From: a virus
Direction: 5' to 3' (one strand)
DNA: 7,481 nt
Virus record (IMG/VR): IMGVR_UViG_3300037558_002627
Location: 1 to 7,481 of that record
Of this stretch, positions 1,501-7,481 are shown in pieces. The translations under genes and the position numbers were made by a program. Within the stretch, counting starts at the first letter, position 1. Each line of letters begins with the position of its first letter. The notes below the pieces were generated by a model that did not search any database, was not told where the DNA came from, and was given only the letters and a program-made list of their open reading frames with translations.

Positions 1501-2973
1501 TTATGCCTCCAGGAACACGCGAACAGCCGCCAATGCCCATATAGCAAGCATGACGTAATAAAGCGGGTCGAATAGATCAGCGTTCTGGCAAACCCAGTTA
1601 AACGAGATAGAGCCGATAACCGGGATAGTTGCACTGCCGAAGTTGCAAGAACCACCCGATGGCATGGCGATACCCTGGACAGCGGCAAAAACTGGGGAGT
1701 TGCCCGCCCTGGCGTAGAAAGAAGTCAGGGATTCGCCGAAGCCTGCAACCTCATCGTTGCCCGGTAGGTCGCCGCCAACCTCCTCTTCACCGCAATCAAC
1801 GATGCAATCGCCGTCGCCGGTTCCAGTACCATCGCCCTTACCAATGCCAGTACCGCACTTGGCTCCCTCGCACTTGGTCTCAGAGGACGTAGTATTGCCA
1901 TTGCCATCTTTGATAGTGACGTTTGTTGTCTTAGTCGTTACCGACTGGCAGGAATTAACACCAGTGCAGTTAACGTCTGTGCGTATATCCGTCTTAGTGG
2001 TGGTAGTACCACCATCAGGATTCGACTTTGTTTCGACCTTAGTGTCGATGCTGACACCATTGGAAGAAGGCTGTTTAGTGTAGTTGCAGTTCCACTCAGC
2101 ATTATTGAAAGAGCCACAATTGGTACTTTCACCGGGAACACCACGATAGTCAGACGACTGGCAGCTAACCATGCCCTCACCATCCGCATAGTAAGAACAC
2201 GGCTTGCGGTCAGTAATGACAGGCTCATCAGGAACGTCGCAAGATTCACCCTCTGGACAAACATCCGGAGAAGTAGCCGAAGGAACAAATGAAGGCGCAT
2301 CACCATCAGCAACTTCACCAGAGAAACTAACACCAACTTTACAACGCTGGGCAGGAGGGCCAAGAGTAATAGTTCCGGGTTTAGGAGTTGCCGGAGCCTT
2401 GCAATGCGAAACATCAATAACAGTAGCGACACAACCCTGCGAAATAACAGGAGGTGGCGGAATGGGATTGCCCTCACCGTCATATTCGACATAGACAGTT
2501 GTGGTACGGGTTGACTTAGACAAATGCTCGCATTGAGAAGGCTTGTCGGCATCATAGAAAGGAACACACTCACCTGATGCAGTGGTGATCTTGGGAATAG
2601 TTACACCAGCGATAACATGATCGCCGCACTTTTCACCGCCAGGCTCTTGAGGGGCCTCGCATCCGCCAGTGGTAGGATTATAAATGGAAGGCAGAGTGCA
2701 ACCAGATCCCTGCCTTACAACAGAATGCTGAGAAATAAAAACAGGACCCATATAGAGATAGCAGGCAGCAGTAGAGCCACCAGAATATTGAAGCTGATAT
2801 GTCCTGCCATTTTTGCTAGCAAGTTTAGAACAACTAGAATCAGGGGTCTCGCCCCTAGTTTGAGTATCAGAACCAATTTGCCAGTAGTAATCTTCAGCCA
2901 GCGAAACGCCAGAATAAAACGCCGACGAAAGAATCAGTATATACAACGCGATATAAAACCGAACCTTGCCCAT
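1501..2973 (-). CDS. gIII: Adsorption / minor coat protein pIII-like, 490 aa precursor
   Basis: First ATG is at 2973 (the track start at 2994 is TTG). Signal peptide MGKVRFYIALYILILSSAFYSGVSLA|EDYY. 24 Cys in the mature part, Pro-rich linkers (PIPPPPV, PATPKPG), a Gly-rich linker GTGIGKGDGTGTGDGD (1807-1854) and a C-terminal hydrophobic anchor LYYVMLAIWALAAVRVFLEA. Position after the coat gene. Confidence 0.85.
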   Translation of the reverse strand: MGKVRFYIALYILILSSAFYSGVSLAEDYYWQIGSDTQTRGETPDSSCSKLASKNGRTYQLQYSGGSTAACYLYMGPVFISQHSVVRQGSGCTLPSIYNPTTGGCEAPQEPGGEKCGDHVIAGVTIPKITTASGECVPFYDADKPSQCEHLSKSTRTTTVYVEYDGEGNPIPPPPVISQGCVATVIDVSHCKAPATPKPGTITLGPPAQRCKVGVSFSGEVADGDAPSFVPSATSPDVCPEGESCDVPDEPVITDRKPCSYYADGEGMVSCQSSDYRGVPGESTNCGSFNNAEWNCNYTKQPSSNGVSIDTKVETKSNPDGGTTTTKTDIRTDVNCTGVNSCQSVTTKTTNVTIKDGNGNTTSSETKCEGAKCGTGIGKGDGTGTGDGDCIVDCGEEEVGGDLPGNDEVAGFGESLTSFYARAGNSPVFAAVQGIAMPSGGSCNFGSATIPVIGSISFNWVCQNADLFDPLYYVMLAIWALAAVRVFLEA

Positions 2974-2974
2974 C

Positions 2975-3049
2975 TCACCACCCCCAAAAAACAACGCAGG
3001 CAGTTATTCCGCCCAAGAACAAAAAGATGGCCTCATAAAGTTCGAACAT
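2975..3049 (-). CDS. 24-aa hydrophobic micro-protein MFELYEAIFLFLGGITACVVFWGW (pVII/pIX-like tip protein or PfsE-like membrane peptide)
   Basis: Strong SD GAGGA 7 nt upstream of ATG 3049, immediately after the coat terminator. Its TGA lies 1 nt before the gIII ATG (TGAGATG). It is the tail of the implausible 86-aa track ORF 2975..3235. Confidence 0.5.
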   Translation of the reverse strand: MFELYEAIFLFLGGITACVVFWGW

Positions 3050-3062
3050 GGCGATTTCCTCG

Positions 3063-3089
3063 AATAAAAAAGGGGGCCTAAGCCCCCTT
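3063..3089 (-). terminator. Rho-independent terminator after the major coat gene
   Basis: Minus strand reads AAGGGGGC-TTAG-GCCCCCTT followed by TTTTATT. The 8-bp perfect stem is 3070-3077 / 3082-3089 with a 4-nt loop, 15 nt downstream of the coat stop. This is analogous to the post-gVIII terminator of Ff phages. Confidence 0.85.
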
Positions 3090-3104
3090 CCCAACTGGCC
3101 GTGA

Positions 3105-3239
3105 TTAGCGGCGAATAACCGACAGAAGCAGAGTGGCGCCTTTGATCGCCACGTAAGCCACAGCAAGCAGGCCTGCGATAGTGCCGATGCCGGTAGCGAT
3201 AGCAACGAAATCGACGTTTGCGAGTACGGCTTCAACCAT
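3105..3239 (-). CDS. gVIII: Major coat protein, 44 aa, no signal peptide: MVEAVLANVDFVAIATGIGTIAGLLAVAYVAIKGATLLLSVIRR
   Basis: Not in the supplied ORF track (below its length cut-off). ATG 3239 has AAGGGG 8 nt upstream and an in-frame TAA 5 codons upstream. Acidic N-terminus (E3, D10), a hydrophobic core of about 20 residues and a basic C-terminus (K33, R43, R44). Same size and layout as the Pf3 coat (44 aa, from memory). Overlaps the orf79 stop (ATGGTTGA) and is followed by a terminator. Confidence 0.85.
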   Translation of the reverse strand: MVEAVLANVDFVAIATGIGTIAGLLAVAYVAIKGATLLLSVIRR

Positions 3240-5528: not shown

Positions 5529-5647
5529 AAAAATCACAAATGATGTTTTGTGACTTTATAGCTGAATCACACATGACATTGCAACACATGCAAAAATCAC
5601 GTCTGTCGGAAATCACGAATGATGGCGGAGTGAAATCACAGAAAATG
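5529..5647. promoter_or_regulatory. Iteron/operator field: five direct (A/G)AATCAC repeats plus one inverted copy in the divergent gII / RHH intergenic region
   Basis: TCAC cores at 5534, 5567, 5597, 5613 and 5636. AAATCACAAATGATG (5531-5545) and AAATCACGAATGATG (5610-5624) are 14/15 identical. Inverted copy TTTGTGACTT at 5547-5556. Confidence 0.7.
5555..5584 (-). promoter_or_regulatory. Candidate sigma70 promoter for gII (TTGCAA - 18 nt - TATAAA on the minus strand)
   Basis: -35 at 5579-5584 and -10 at 5555-5560 (plus-strand tttata), about 60 nt upstream of the gII GTG. The -10 lies between two inverted TCAC-core repeats. Motif match only. Confidence 0.3.
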
Positions 5648-5836
5648 GCCAAGACCTACAGATTGCGCGACGAAGCCGTGGAAGCCCTGAACGCAAAGAG
5701 AATCAAGCTGATCGTCGAGCGGAAAGAAGACGTGAAGGAGAGCGATCTGCTGGGGGCTTTGATCTGGAAGCACCTATCGACGCTGACAGCGCAGGACGTC
5801 AAGGCGTACCGGGAAACAGTGTTGGGGAAAGACTGA
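5645..5836 (+). CDS. 63-aa ribbon-helix-helix (Arc/CopG-like) DNA-binding protein, candidate repressor
   Basis: MAKTYRLRDEAVEALNAKR...VKESDLLGALIWKHL fits a strand-helix-turn-helix RHH pattern. Divergent from gII. The track's 98-aa form (5540 start) would translate through the iterons. No good SD, so the start is uncertain or the transcript leaderless. Confidence 0.65.
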   Translation: MAKTYRLRDEAVEALNAKRIKLIVERKEDVKESDLLGALIWKHLSTLTAQDVKAYRETVLGKD

Positions 5837-6024
5837 TGATCTGGGCGCTAGTGATAGCGACAACCATAAACGGCCCCGGAATCGATGCGGCGCAGTTTGA
5901 AAGCCGAGAACAGTGCAGAAGAGCCGCACTGATCATCGGTGAGATGGCGTATAGGACGGCCGTTGAAAGGGGCGGCGATGAAGAAGCCGCCGACATATAT
6001 GCCAGATGCGAAAAGCGCGAATAG
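5836..6024 (+). CDS. 62-aa protein with hydrophobic N-terminus and two Cys, unknown function
   Basis: ATG overlaps the RHH stop (TGATG), with GGGGA SD 7 nt upstream. Rare-codon rich (ATA, AGA, AGG), unlike the structural genes. An antisense minus-strand ORF also exists here (see rejected list). Confidence 0.5.
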   Translation: MIWALVIATTINGPGIDAAQFESREQCRRAALIIGEMAYRTAVERGGDEEAADIYARCEKRE

Positions 6025-6072
6025 TGCCACCGTGGCACAAAAGTCCACCATTAGAGTAGGTGGACTCTGATC
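6024..6072 (-). other. Ff-type plus-strand origin of replication (nick hairpin plus adjacent palindrome)
   Basis: Minus strand reads AGTCCACC-TACTCTAAT-GGTGGACT-TTTGTGCCACGGTGGCAC. The f1 core, as I recall it, is AGTCCAC-GTTCTTTAATA-GTGGACT-CTTGTTCCAAACTGGAACA. The 8-bp stem is 6042-6049 / 6059-6066 and the palindrome GTGCCAC-C-GTGGCAC is 6024-6038. Same strand as gII. Confidence 0.75.
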
Positions 6073-6221: not shown

Positions 6222-6326
6222 GGTACCGAAAACCGAAATCCTGGACGAAAGCTGAAGGCGATTTTGGTACCGTTTAGCGTCGACGTAGATCCTGGCCGGG
6301 AGCAAGATGCCGGCGAAGGCGGTACC
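6222..6326. promoter_or_regulatory. GGTACC-core palindrome array B (3 sites: 6222, 6266, 6321)
   Basis: Sites flanked by A/T runs and preceded by GAAGG(G)CG. Spacings are 44 and 55 bp. The first site begins 3 nt after the stop of the 123-aa RHH gene. Confidence 0.65.
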
Positions 6327-6329
6327 AAA

Positions 6330-6701
6330 TCAGGTGCGACCCTGGCGATTCAGGCGCGCCAGGAAATGGTCCATAGACTCATCGGCCTGGGGCAAGGTCT
6401 CCGGCTCGACGTGGTGCCGCAAACGCAACGGCGCAGTCTCTTTGGGTTGGAAAATATCGCCCTGACTCGCCACCTCAGCGAGCTGAATCGCAGCGTCACG
6501 TGCTGCTGCCAGGGTCTGCTGGTAGACCTTGGCTTGTTGCTTCAGCTCAGCAATCTCAGAACGCGCATGGCGCAGGTCAGCATCAAGGCGCAACGCCTGG
6601 CGAGCTGCATCAGCGAACGCTTTCGACGCGACACGCTCACCGGTGAAGGCAAACATCTTGGCGGCCAATTCGTCGTCGGCCTGGAACTTGACTAGCGGCA
6701 T
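6330..6701 (-). CDS. 123-aa RHH-like + coiled-coil protein (P3), paralog of P1
   Basis: ATG 6701 has GGAG 8 nt upstream and lies 2 nt after the P2 stop. N-terminus is LVKFQA (strand) - DDELAAKMFAFT (helix) - G21 - helix. ADLRHAR (41-47) begins a heptad-like helix. C-terminal tail of about 45 aa. Confidence 0.7.
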   Translation of the reverse strand: MPLVKFQADDELAAKMFAFTGERVASKAFADAARQALRLDADLRHARSEIAELKQQAKVYQQTLAAARDAAIQLAEVASQGDIFQPKETAPLRLRHHVEPETLPQADESMDHFLARLNRQGRT

Positions 6702-6703
6702 AT

Positions 6704-6934
6704 TCAGCGCTCCGGAAAGGCAGATTCAAAGAGGTCACAAACATCGTCGTCCTGATCACCCGACCAACAACCAGCGGCGTGAAGGCCAGCGAGAAAGTCA
6801 CCGAGTCGAACGGGCGAGATCAATCCACGCTCAAGGTCAGAGCAGTAATCATCAAGGCGCTCAACAGCAAGATGGCGATCACCAAGAAGCTGAGTAACGA
6901 GAGTGCGAAGACGAGCAAGCCTTACAGGTACCAT
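6704..6934 (-). CDS. 76-aa acidic orphan protein (P2), net charge about -6, no Lys
   Basis: ATG 6934 has GGAG 7 nt upstream (the track start 7012 is TTG). The ATG is fused to a GGTACC site (ATGGTACC). Tightly coupled to P3. NNT-rich codons. I recognise no family. Confidence 0.6.
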   Translation of the reverse strand: MVPVRLARLRTLVTQLLGDRHLAVERLDDYCSDLERGLISPVRLGDFLAGLHAAGCWSGDQDDDVCDLFESAFPER

Positions 6935-7057
6935 TTTAGTACTCCAGGATGTTCTGCAGGTGACAACAATGGTACCAAAACCATCGAGAGACAGCAAGCG
7001 CTTTGGTACCAAAATATCAACCAGGTGATCGAGCTCGAGGACTAAAAAGGTACCTTT
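6927..7057. promoter_or_regulatory. GGTACC-core palindrome array A (4 sites: 6927, 6971, 7005, 7049) filling the P1-P2 gap
   Basis: Perfect 12-bp palindromes TTTGGTACCAAA (7002-7013) and AAAGGTACCTTT (7046-7057). Spacings are 44, 34 and 44 bp. The outer sites overlap the P1 stop codon and the P2 start codon. Confidence 0.7.
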
Positions 7058-7286
7058 ACAACTCAGAGATCTGTTGCGCGATCAGTCGAAGGCGTTCGAC
7101 CAGGGCATCAAGTTCGGCTCCCTCTTGCTCTTGGCCAGCGAGGCGACGGCGAGCATCGCGAAGATCTGCGAGCAAAACAGGGTACTGAGAAAGGATCCAC
7201 TCGACGGCATCGGAGCCCTTGCGCCCTGGGGCGTACAGCTCGGCATCGCGGATGAGGTAGGAAGGTAGATCGAGGGGCTGTCGCAT
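7056..7286 (-). CDS. 76-aa RHH-like + coiled-coil protein (P1), Mnt-like architecture
   Basis: ATG 7286 has AGGGG 5 nt upstream. PLDLPS (strand) - YLIRDAELYA (helix) - G21RKGS - DAVEWILSQY (helix), then ADLRDAR (40-46) ...LDALVERLRLIAQQISEL coiled coil. Same geometry as P3. Confidence 0.65.
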   Translation of the reverse strand: MRQPLDLPSYLIRDAELYAPGRKGSDAVEWILSQYPVLLADLRDARRRLAGQEQEGAELDALVERLRLIAQQISEL

Positions 7287-7367
7287 AACGGCCCCTATGT
7301 TACGCGACGCCCGGAGCTACGCCAGTGTCCGGACGCCGCTCAACATAAGGGCGGCATTATGCGAAGC
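7278..7367 (-). other. Two inverted dif-like XerC/XerD sites forming a long imperfect hairpin (candidate folded attP and/or packaging signal)
   Basis: Minus strand 7367->7338 reads GCTTCGCATAA-TGCCGCCC-TTATGTTGAGC. Plus strand 7278->7305 reads CTGTCGCATAA-CGGCCC-CTATGTTACGC. In-register pairing gives 20 of 25 positions between 7291-7315 and 7328-7352, plus 8 bp between 7281-7288 and 7357-7364. Confidence 0.6.
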
Positions 7368-7481
7368 CTAGGATGCACGGGAATGGCCTCACAGTGCCGC
7401 AGGCGGCGGGTTTACAAGCGGATTGTGGTTGGCGGTCTGCTGCACCGTTTCGCCGGTCGACTCGCTACGCTCGCCACCGGC
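7355..7481. repeat. Right copy of the terminal overlap; 7389-7481 re-reads the 3' end of gI (not a second gene)
   Basis: Identical to 1-127. The gI stop codon at 35-37 corresponds to 7389-7391. Confidence 0.97.

Follow-up and report, generated by a model that had tools for sequence, protein, structure and literature searches.

A conserved inovirus module with phased operator arrays and a probable ribbon–helix–helix autorepressor carrying a clamp-binding-like tail

Small ribbon–helix–helix (RHH) autorepressors such as Arc, Mnt, CopG and omega bind short (pseudo)palindromic operators that lie over their own promoters, and they derive their specificity from a β-strand. The window analysed here is the whole 7481-nt stretch of IMG/VR virus record IMGVR_UViG_3300037558_002627, a circular inovirus genome of 7354 nt in which positions 7355–7481 repeat 1–127 exactly (127 nt). 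It encodes three small proteins, P1, P2 and P3, interspersed with arrays of the palindrome GGTACC. Like the above autorepressors, and P22 Mnt in particular, P3 is small and is predicted to have a strand–helix–G-x-S turn–helix topology with a C-terminal helical extension. Short palindromes lie over its probable promoter, and specificity of the β-strand is suggested by co-variation. The module belongs functionally with the RHH autorepressors. In contrast to Mnt, Arc, CopG and omega, to which it has no detectable sequence or Foldseek similarity, P3 is flanked on both gene sides by seven dispersed sites 24–55 bp apart instead of one compact operator or contiguous heptads, and its conserved C-terminal peptide Q-x-D-L-F has no counterpart in them. 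We read the locus, with moderate confidence, as a conserved inovirus regulatory module in which an autorepressed RHH regulator probably engages the host sliding clamp DnaN.

The small DNA-binding transcription factor MuC of phage Mu needs two clamp-binding motifs (CBMs) and the clamp, and is lethal when over-produced (PMC12867686). P3 resembles the MuC/Mor family in being a small, probably site-specific DNA-binding protein of a phage with a CBM-like, near-consensus motif at a terminus (PMC12867686). Coupling of phage expression to replication, as for MuC, would be expected of P3, and toxicity upon over-expression would explain tight autorepression. MuC is a helix–turn–helix (HTH) activator of late promoters in a transposing myovirus, whereas P3 is RHH-like, probably a repressor and encoded by a filamentous phage; in contrast to that of MuC, clamp use by P3 is read from its motif only. 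The centromere-binding systems (ParG with parH, ParB of pB171 par2 with parC1 and parC2, ParR with parC, and omega) resemble P3 in their RHH-type protein, in the arrays on both sides of the gene, and in the autoregulation and the higher-order nucleoprotein complexes that would be expected of P3 too. P3 differs from them in having no partner nucleoside triphosphatase (NTPase) and no plasmid homologues, in its wider site spacing and in its other tail motif. Operons of anti-CRISPR (acr) and anti-CRISPR-associated (aca) genes share with the module the order of a repeat-containing promoter, a small acidic gene and a small (in the module, probable) autorepressor, as well as a variable passenger, but the P3 family is conserved alone in inoviruses and is not a known Aca, and P2 is not a known Acr. 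The Pseudomonas inovirus PMBT54 encodes an omega-like RHH protein after its assembly module that has been proposed to act in episome maintenance (PMC10534721). This protein, ORF13, is comparable to P3 in being of the RHH type, in being encoded after zot in a filamentous phage of Pseudomonas and in its putative regulatory or maintenance role. Neither arrays nor a clamp-like motif were reported for ORF13 (PMC10534721), and it was not among the tblastn matches of P1 or P3 in the phage collection.

Operator arrays and the P3 family

P1, P2 and P3 are real coding genes under purifying selection, since their pN/pS ratios (nonsynonymous over synonymous) relative to relatives lie between 0.04 and 0.31 (0.04–0.16 for P2, 0.12–0.17 for P1 and 0.14–0.31 for P3). 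The original prediction had described them from the sequence, and all of its coordinates and sequence statements on the three proteins are correct. These include the composition of P2 (10 Asp, 4 Glu, 0 Lys), the segments ADLRDAR (P1 40–46) and ADLRHAR (P3 41–47), the P2 start codon inside an operator with close coupling of P2 to P3, and the position of the module just after a dif-like hairpin. The P1 stop codon is followed after 1 nt by GGTACC (TAAAGGTACC) and the P3 stop codon by TGATTTGGTACC. The fourth GGTACC site is overlapped by the P2 ATG (AAAATGGTACCTG), with GGAG 7 nt upstream of this ATG, and a gap of 2 nt separates the P2 stop codon from the P3 ATG (TGAATATG).

GGTACC occurs seven times where 0.90 copies are expected, a number reached in 0 of 200 dinucleotide-preserving shuffles. 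The copies form two clusters, starting at 6222/6266/6321 and at 6927/6971/7005/7049. They were compared with those of about 30 related inovirus loci, consisting of prophages and contigs with P3 homologues (all loci mentioned here are numbered from L001). Four upstream GGTACC sites, spaced 44-34-44 or 44-24-44, are present in every locus where P3 has an L-V/I-K strand, with the exception of L032, where there are seven. Downstream of P3 two or three sites follow with a 55-44 spacing, the first at the P3 stop codon; where P3 is longer, the 3' end of its open reading frame (ORF) takes in the 55-spaced pair. When ten upstream regions are aligned the hexamer cores are invariant, and the remainder averages 64% column identity. 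With a helical turn of 11 bp, the spacings of 24, 34, 44 and 55 bp amount to 2.2, 3.1, 4.0 and 5.0 turns; those of 24 and 34 bp differ by one turn, so that the sites stay in phase. This geometry is present with or without P1 or P2.

On comparative grounds we assign both arrays to P3. Most P3 loci have a P1-family gene just upstream (L003 and L004 included). The full array set together with an 85-residue P3 is found without P1 right after the dif-like element in L037 and L038, and a black-swan inovirus (L001) has P1 without an array and without P3. Arrays and P3 adjoin differing replication and repressor modules: L003, L013 and L014 have an HTH_3 repressor, L005–L008 and L016 a 59-residue protein. 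GGTACC at the stop codons of P1 and P3 had been taken to mean one array per gene, and thus a duplicated gene-plus-sites module; the sites are indeed there, but both arrays bracket P3.

Two other assignments of the arrays were considered and rejected. They are not P1 sites, as arrays occur without P1 (L037 and L038) and P1 without arrays (L001), and they are not Rep iterons, as they travel with P3 across differing Rep and repressor modules.

The hexamer follows the N-terminal strand of P3, as expected if this strand reads DNA. L-V/I-K strands go with GGTACC even in lineages that are 33–45% identical to P3 (L012, L021, L032, L037 and L038). Distant relatives (34–40% identity) with the N-terminus MLTIRDVD or LLTLRDVP have zero GGTACC in the module. 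The loci L022–L031, with M-L-T-I-R or L-L-T-L-R strands, contain seven or eight copies of GCTAGC each, six to eight of them inside the module, in a 44-24-44 / 44-44 geometry as in the GGTACC arrays. In a silver-pheasant phage (L002; strand KTLTLRDVPHD) the sites are GCTATC/GATAGC, in the orientation + - - + / - - -. The predicted DNA code pairs a Lys-containing strand with GGTACC and a Thr/Arg strand with GCTAGC, and we regard the evidence from this co-variation as good but not overwhelming.

Site 3 reads TGGTACCAT in the window and TGGTACCAT, TGCTAGCAT or TGATAGCAT in nearly all relatives. It alone carries a CAT extension (TGnTAnCAT), in all three operator classes, and sites 1, 2 and 4 are without CAT; TGnTAnnnT is the pattern of an extended -10 element. 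In the 34-spaced loci TTGC is located 17 nt upstream, and in P2-less loci the Shine–Dalgarno sequence abuts site 4. The P2–P3 promoter is probably centred on site 3, where it would be occluded by P3.

Parts of the DNA between the operators (6933–7048 and 6228–6320 in the window, and the arrays of L007, L022 and L002) are conserved from one operator class to another. CCTCGAGC and CACCTGGT are found after site 1, CTCGATGG before site 3, CACCTGCAG...TCCTGGA after site 3 and CCAGGATC in the downstream array. All of these motifs could be sites for P1 or for a host factor; CCTCGAGC, CACCTGGT and CCAGGATC are the candidates named for P1.

P3 matches phrog_8031 (E 1e-17), a family of unknown function, and has 14 close homologues. 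A profile search of 1.84 billion representatives gave 112 family matches at E <= 1e-3, mostly of 83–89 residues. In the family alignment of 124 sequences (118 in the N-terminal domain set) the strand M-L-[VI]-K-[FIL]-D-A-D-D comes first, then a short helix, a turn T-G-x-x-[TV]-A-S-K-A and a long heptad helix that ends in A-R-S-A-A-x-L-L-E. The turn, T20-G21-x-x-V-A-S26-K-A in P3, is well conserved: T20 is kept in 101 of 123 sequences, G21 in 90/123, S26 in 109/123 and A28 in 121/123, with A25 and K27 also among the best columns. The AlphaFold2 model of P3 (predicted local distance difference test score, pLDDT, 75.6) is a monomer, in which the strand cannot appear as a sheet. It contains an extended segment (1–9), a helix (10–20), the turn (21–26), a long helix (27–83), disorder from residue 83 and a further helix (110–122), and thus has the order strand, helix A, turn, helix B together with the conserved G-x-S/T/N turn. 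Mnt has, besides its RHH head, a C-terminal coiled coil that makes tetramers; a long helix that might play such a part is predicted with high confidence in both P3 (27–83) and P1 (24–75).

P3 likely consists of an RHH-like head and a coiled coil. The RHH assignment rests on the AlphaFold2 topology, on the conserved turn and on matches of 12 out of 118 N-terminal domains to PF22513 (FitA-like_RHH; best E 2e-5). Single weak matches of N-terminal domains were obtained to RHH_1, VapB and CopG_antitoxin, and the best match of the N-terminal domain profile in the PDB is the RHH-type antitoxin 7e4j (E 0.093). As an RHH protein, P3 would form a dimer with a two-stranded antiparallel sheet that inserts into the major groove of a short (pseudo)palindrome; such reading by the strand receives indirect support because the palindromic 6-bp cores co-vary with the strand sequence. 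Foldseek returned nothing below E 0.5 for the P3 model against the PDB and BFVD or for the P1 model against the PDB, and PDB profile searches with the alignments of P1, P2 and P3 gave nothing significant. The proposed likeness to P22 Mnt therefore holds for the architecture and not for homology to Mnt or Arc, for which no Pfam, PDB-sequence or Foldseek match was found. In tblastn searches P3 has no homologue in phages or in 72,556 plasmids, and a typical 85-residue family member has no match in phages. Scans of viral contigs with distant P3 members gave no match, and a scan of the genome collection with the narrow P3 alignment gave two loci.

Long variants of P3 (GESMDHFLARLNR-type) possess a second conserved C-terminal helix, which in the window is ESMDHFLARLNR (residues about 106–118; 6348–6386). 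Its consensus is (G/N)ES(M/I)DxFLxRL, and it is absent from the 85-residue majority. In L012, L013 and L021 the ORF, lengthened by this extension, now includes the downstream operator pair.

A conserved motif in the tail of P3

Judged from the alignment, the most conserved element of the whole P3 family is Q-x-D-L-F. This C-terminal motif, Q-x-D-[LMI]-[FL], was missed by the original prediction. The near-invariant family form is Q-[G/S/D/T/A/K]-D-[L/M/I]-[F/L], with Q in 117/124 sequences, D in 112/123, L/M/I in 114/123 and F/L in 107/121. Variants include QGDLF, QGDMF, QDDLF and QSDLF, with QADMF in one family member (P0086) and QGDIF in the P3 of the window. The motif lies at most six residues from the C-terminus in 84 of the 124 members. 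In the window it is found at the end of the long helix, and pLDDT is below 50 from residue 83.

CBMs follow the pattern Q-phi-x-[L/M][F/L] or a hexameric variant of it (PMC11139829). The Gln and the last two hydrophobic residues weigh most; at position 3 there is a mild preference for Asp, and substitutions at position 2 are tolerated, as in QADMF of Pol III alpha and QTSMAF of epsilon (PMC11139829). As a rule CBMs occupy disordered tails and are flanked by acidic residues or by a free carboxylate (PMC11139829; PMC9690074). The motif of the P3 family agrees with this pattern at positions 1, 3, 4 and 5 and in its location in a disordered or C-terminal tail. It departs at position 2, which is small or polar, as it is in the Pol III alpha and epsilon peptides. 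P3 may engage DnaN, and docking onto the clamp through this motif is a plausible, if still tentative, proposal. In the literature we found no paper that connects the clamp with RHH proteins or with filamentous phages.

P1, P2 and a proposed working of the module

P1 matches phrog_13909 (E 9.6e-21) and has 32 homologues in prophages of Pseudomonas, Ectopseudomonas and Stutzerimonas. Its AlphaFold2 model (pLDDT 90.8) has a P3-like topology with an extended segment (1–8) and two helices (9–18 and 24–75), so that the geometry the original prediction had ascribed to both proteins (extended segment, helix, Gly/Ser turn and long helix) is reproduced. Within the P1 family the motif A-P-G-R-K-G-S-D-A-V is conserved and the N-terminal strand varies. 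P1 and P3 are not aligned by BLASTP, and hhalign of the narrow alignments gives 17% only; with the broad P3 family compared to the P1 family, hhalign reports a probability of 88% (E 3e-6, 71 columns). The broad P3 hidden Markov model (HMM) aligns 33/33 P1-family members in one register with 8–27 bits, compared with a control maximum of 13.7 bits in 3333 shuffled or reversed sequences. This register extends from the Ser capping helix B through the final L-L-E, and P1 ends (...ISEL) exactly where P3 families go on into G-Q-G-D-L-F. P1 is most readily understood as a tail-less paralogue of P3 that is of ancient origin. The suggested duplication of P1 and P3 thus stands as remote homology, but not as a recent event: because P1 is a remote paralogue that stops before the motif, what was duplicated in the distant past was not a gene-plus-sites module. 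No cognate site for P1 was identified, and members of the P1 family match no RHH family in Pfam. The label 'DASH complex subunit Dad3' on four P1 homologues (P0015, P0023, P0028 and P0030) was rejected as a spurious coiled-coil match (PF08656; best E 5e-4, 13/33 P1-family members). With P1, P2 and P3, searches of Pfam, NCBIfam and PADLOC gave coiled-coil noise only.

P2 is a lineage-specific insertion between operator 4 and P3, a rare passenger. It has three homologues among 5.8e9 proteins plus one 99%-identical IMG/VR contig. In the five loci from which it is known its position is the same throughout, with the ATG in operator 4 and the stop codon 2 nt before P3. It is absent from L003–L008, L012–L016, L019, L021–L032, L037 and L038. 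The survey of related inoviruses that had been proposed thus finds P3 and its arrays to be widespread and the full cassette with P2 to be confined to these five loci. As had been noted, P2 fits no family: Pfam, PHROG, NCBIfam, PADLOC and PDB searches, among which there was no dedicated Acr/Aca library, gave no match, and tblastn against phages gave noise only. The protein is moderately acidic, with a net charge of about -6. Against plasmids, tblastn returned one borderline relative (E 0.02–0.08 database-wide), a 159-residue protein to whose N-terminus residues 3–56 of P2 are 46% identical without gaps and whose gene is carried by 37 Pseudomonas aeruginosa plasmid records. In both plasmids inspected this gene is part of a small same-strand gene run, about 3 kb upstream of acrF3-acrF-HTH. 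In L034 and L035 the run also contains genes for a HEAT-repeat protein, an SRAP peptidase and AcrF3, followed in this list by acrF as a second anti-CRISPR gene and by an HTH regulator gene; one of the two plasmids, L035, has in addition an antirestriction gene and a RelE/HigA pair. This neighbourhood looks like an anti-defence island and, as an association at weak similarity, lends the idea of an anti-defence role for P2 some footing. The C-terminus of P2 (6704–6750, DQDDDVCDLFESAFPER) is a conserved acidic tail with C-D-L-F-E, like the P3 motif minus Gln, which could be a coincidence or reflect competition for the same partner.

The order of the module is P1, four operators, (P2), P3 and three operators, between a probable Xer-type attachment hairpin and the repressor/replication control region. 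In the proposed mechanism P3 is an RHH dimer with a long coiled coil, the N-terminal β-strand of which would read GGTACC. The upstream sites, phased at whole turns of ~11 bp (44-34-44), would cover the P2–P3 promoter and the 5' leader. P3 most likely represses its own operon through cooperative, possibly looping, occupancy of the seven sites, since the upstream sites would cover promoter and leader, site 4 overlaps the P2 ATG and three more sites start at the P3 stop codon. Through autorepression the amount of P3, and of P2 in loci that have it, would stay low and buffered. Array-bound P3 would dock onto the host clamp DnaN via Q80-G-D-I-F84, and the neighbouring control and origin region may in this way be expressed or replicated in step with the passage of the replisome; alternatively, array-bound P3 may capture clamps locally. 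P1 may modulate P3 via the common coiled coil or bind other sites, and P2 would be a recently acquired passenger that borrows the regulated promoter of P3. A bolder version, possible but rather doubtful, makes P3 an uncharacterised and widespread inovirus family of site-specific clamp tethers, RHH dimers or tetramers that sit on phased arrays beside the attachment site and the origin and dock the clamp through the C-terminal Q-x-D-L-F peptide. Expression of the prophage or the replicative form (RF), replication or Xer-mediated integration would then sense host replication, P1 would tune the switch through mixed coiled coils and P2 would exploit it, possibly as an anti-defence factor or as a modulator of the clamp or of P3 (C-terminus DDDVCDLFESAFP).

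A number of observations weigh against the reading of P3 as an autorepressed, clamp-engaging RHH regulator. The P3 of the window has no significant Pfam, NCBIfam, PDB-sequence or Foldseek match, and its link to RHH proteins is transitive, via 10% of family members. The co-variation of strand and hexamer amounts to only two or three evolutionary switches, and L033, which has a P3-family member, has no obvious array. The consensus promoter scan found no sigma-70 site at its threshold, and the 24-bp-spaced variants have no fitting -35 element. The homology between P1 and P3 could be inflated by coiled-coil composition, though the controls argue otherwise. As to the tail, peptides of this short, acidic-hydrophobic kind can be used with partners other than the clamp, such as P1, Rep, RNA polymerase or proteases. 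Position 2 of the motif is Gly or another small or polar residue and not aliphatic, and a non-aliphatic residue here lowers affinity in peptide studies (PMC11139829). About a third of the family members end in L rather than F, and in the P3 of the window the motif is internal and has Ile, a residue reported as weaker, at position 4.

The original prediction had compared the layout with that of acr–aca operons, in which case P2 would be an anti-CRISPR or other anti-defence protein made from a strong promoter and P3 an Aca-like autorepressor. The operator-laden promoter, the small acidic gene and the closely coupled small repressor agree with this, as do the four conserved sites upstream of P2–P3, which P3 would bind, and the position of a variable passenger upstream of a conserved regulator, like acr upstream of aca. 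The resemblance of P2 to the plasmid protein encoded near acrF3-acrF-HTH points in the same direction, but this match is borderline and limited to the N-terminal domain, and the acrF3 neighbourhood is guilt by association. P2 itself has no Pfam, PHROG, NCBIfam, PADLOC or PDB match and its acidity is only moderate. Nearly all loci have P3 and the arrays but lack P2, and at its position no different passenger was seen in about 25 loci, which argues that acr regulation is not the primary role of the module; the conserved unit is P1–operators–P3–operators. We consider an acr–aca-type operon unlikely as an explanation of the module, and possible for P2 only.

Repeat arrays that flank their own operon are a hallmark of type Ib and II partition systems and of omega, and phased sites combined with a coiled coil would suit bridging. 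P3 might on this basis be a ParG-, ParR- or omega-type protein and the arrays centromere-like elements that pair or organise RF copies via a host partner, so as to control copy number or segregation, in line with the episome maintenance proposed for the PMBT54 protein (PMC10534721). We find this improbable: no ORF of the 7354-nt genome besides Zot encodes an NTPase, P3 is without homologues in the plasmid set, its relatives are integrated prophages with Xer-type ends, and its tail resembles a clamp motif and not a ParA- or ParM-activating peptide. A switch like that of P22 immI, with P1 and P3 as Arc/Mnt-type repressors and P2 as an antirepressor acting against the main repressor (the divergent 63-residue protein), would account for two paralogous RHH-like proteins flanking a small gene next to the repressor and Rep control region. 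It is highly improbable, as P2 is missing from most members, so that the P1/P3 pair cannot mainly control P2; moreover, the three genes are co-directional, unlike mnt/arc-ant, and no similarity to Ant, Arc or Mnt is found. P2 as a toxin with P3 as its RHH antitoxin and autorepressor hardly deserves credence. RHH antitoxins do autoregulate and are translationally coupled to their partners, and the 12 family N-terminal domains match a FitA-like antitoxin family, but a putative toxin gene in first place would be atypical, no toxin family is matched by P2, P3 stands alone in almost all loci where obligate pairing would be expected, and its conserved tail is unrelated to toxin neutralisation. For the toxin–antitoxin, partition and anti-defence roles that had been thought conceivable, no toxin, NTPase or known anti-defence family was matched, and the first two fail on their defining features.

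Filamentous phages influence the biofilms and the virulence of Pseudomonas, Vibrio and other bacteria. Of their small genes located between the assembly module and replication control, few are, to our knowledge, annotated except in Pf4 and CTXphi. Here, three 'hypothetical proteins' become a defined module with a predicted DNA code, a predicted promoter overlap and a specific candidate partner, DnaN. If clamp docking is true, P3 would be the second independent clamp-wired phage transcription factor after Mu MuC, and the first such case in a single-stranded DNA phage and on an RHH scaffold. The P3 family would also provide a conserved anchor gene for locating passenger genes such as P2 in inoviruses.

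Genomic context

The minus strand carries the core genes (Table 1) and, past the wrap-around, the dif-like hairpin followed by P1, P2 and P3. Two small plus-strand genes, at 5540–5836 and 5836–6024, are convergent with P3. The first of these, the ORF with the 63-residue core, is divergent from Rep and in the position of a phage repressor. That it is a third RHH protein, as had been stated, is not established: it has no Pfam match and is absent among the P3-family HMM matches. The host is evidently a pseudomonad, because genomes of Ectopseudomonas hydrolytica, Stutzerimonas and other Pseudomonas encode homologues of P1. An Rfam scan showed no RNA family overlapping the region.

Table 1. Positions of the genes, predicted protein parts, operators and related features (window numbering unless a plasmid locus or residues are given)
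Feature	Position	Strand	Remarks
P1, 76 residues	7056..7286	-	ORF list; acidic, isoelectric point (pI) 4.82
P2, 76 residues from ATG	6704..6934	-	ORF list; 102-residue TTG form also listed; pI 4.58
P3, 123 residues	6330..6701	-	ORF list
Predicted RHH DNA-binding head, P3 residues 1–38	6588..6701	-	PLVKFQADD strand, helix A, turn, start of helix B
Clamp-binding-motif-like peptide, codons Q80-G81-D82-I83-F84	6450..6464	-	family alignment
P3 peptide around the motif	residues 76–88		76-EVASQGDIFQPKE-88
Predicted parts of P3	residues		head about 1–38, coiled coil to about 79, Q80-G-D-I-F84, disordered linker, second helix 106–118
Operator site 1 (GGTACC)	7049..7054	.	1 nt past P1 stop; core unchanged in 9/10 aligned relatives
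Operator site 2 (TTTGGTACCAAA)	7005..7010	.	44 bp from site 1
Operator site 3 with flanks, TGGTACCAT on coding strand	6969..6977	-	34 bp from site 2
Operator site 4 (GGTACC)	6927..6932	.	44 bp from site 3; overlaps P2 ATG (6934-6932)
Operator site 5 (GGTACC)	6321..6326	.	3 nt past P3 stop
Operator site 6 (TTTTGGTACC)	6266..6271	.	55 bp from site 5
Operator site 7 (GGTACC)	6222..6227	.	44 bp from site 6
dif-like inverted pair, candidate XerCD attP	7291-7352	-	24-bp single-strand hairpin, free energy (dG) -24 kcal/mol, z -2.2
Rep	5494-4265	-	phrog_702, E 1.6e-107
Large ORF	2994-1501	-	in adsorption-protein position
Zot/pI protein	1219-35	-	phrog_197
ORF with 63-residue core	5540-5836	+	phrog_5219, E 1.4e-28, family of unknown function
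159-residue protein with P2-like N-terminal domain	L034 3989-4468; L035 6989-7468		plasmids NZ_CP024631, NZ_KY296095

The hairpin directly upstream of P1 consists of a dif-like site and an imperfect inverted partner, with TTCGCATAATGCCGCCCTTATGTTGAG at about 7359–7333, and is a candidate CTXphi-style XerCD attP. The same dif-like element precedes the module in L003, L007, L021, L033, L037 and L038, and prophage copies start with P1, right after this element. In L016, which also has the P1–operators–P3 module, a CTX_RstB-family protein (PF07459) is encoded after Rep at 2837–3142; it links these Pseudomonas inoviruses to the CTXphi-type integration toolkit.

A megablast search of 50,697 phage records gave no close relative of the whole window. 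The sole nucleotide match in deposited phages covers 47 nt at 6019–6065, with 91.5% identity to Pseudomonas phage 5a-DAzarov. This segment, located between the convergent P3 and 62-residue genes, folds into two adjacent hairpins (z -4.3) that may be a bidirectional terminator or an origin element.

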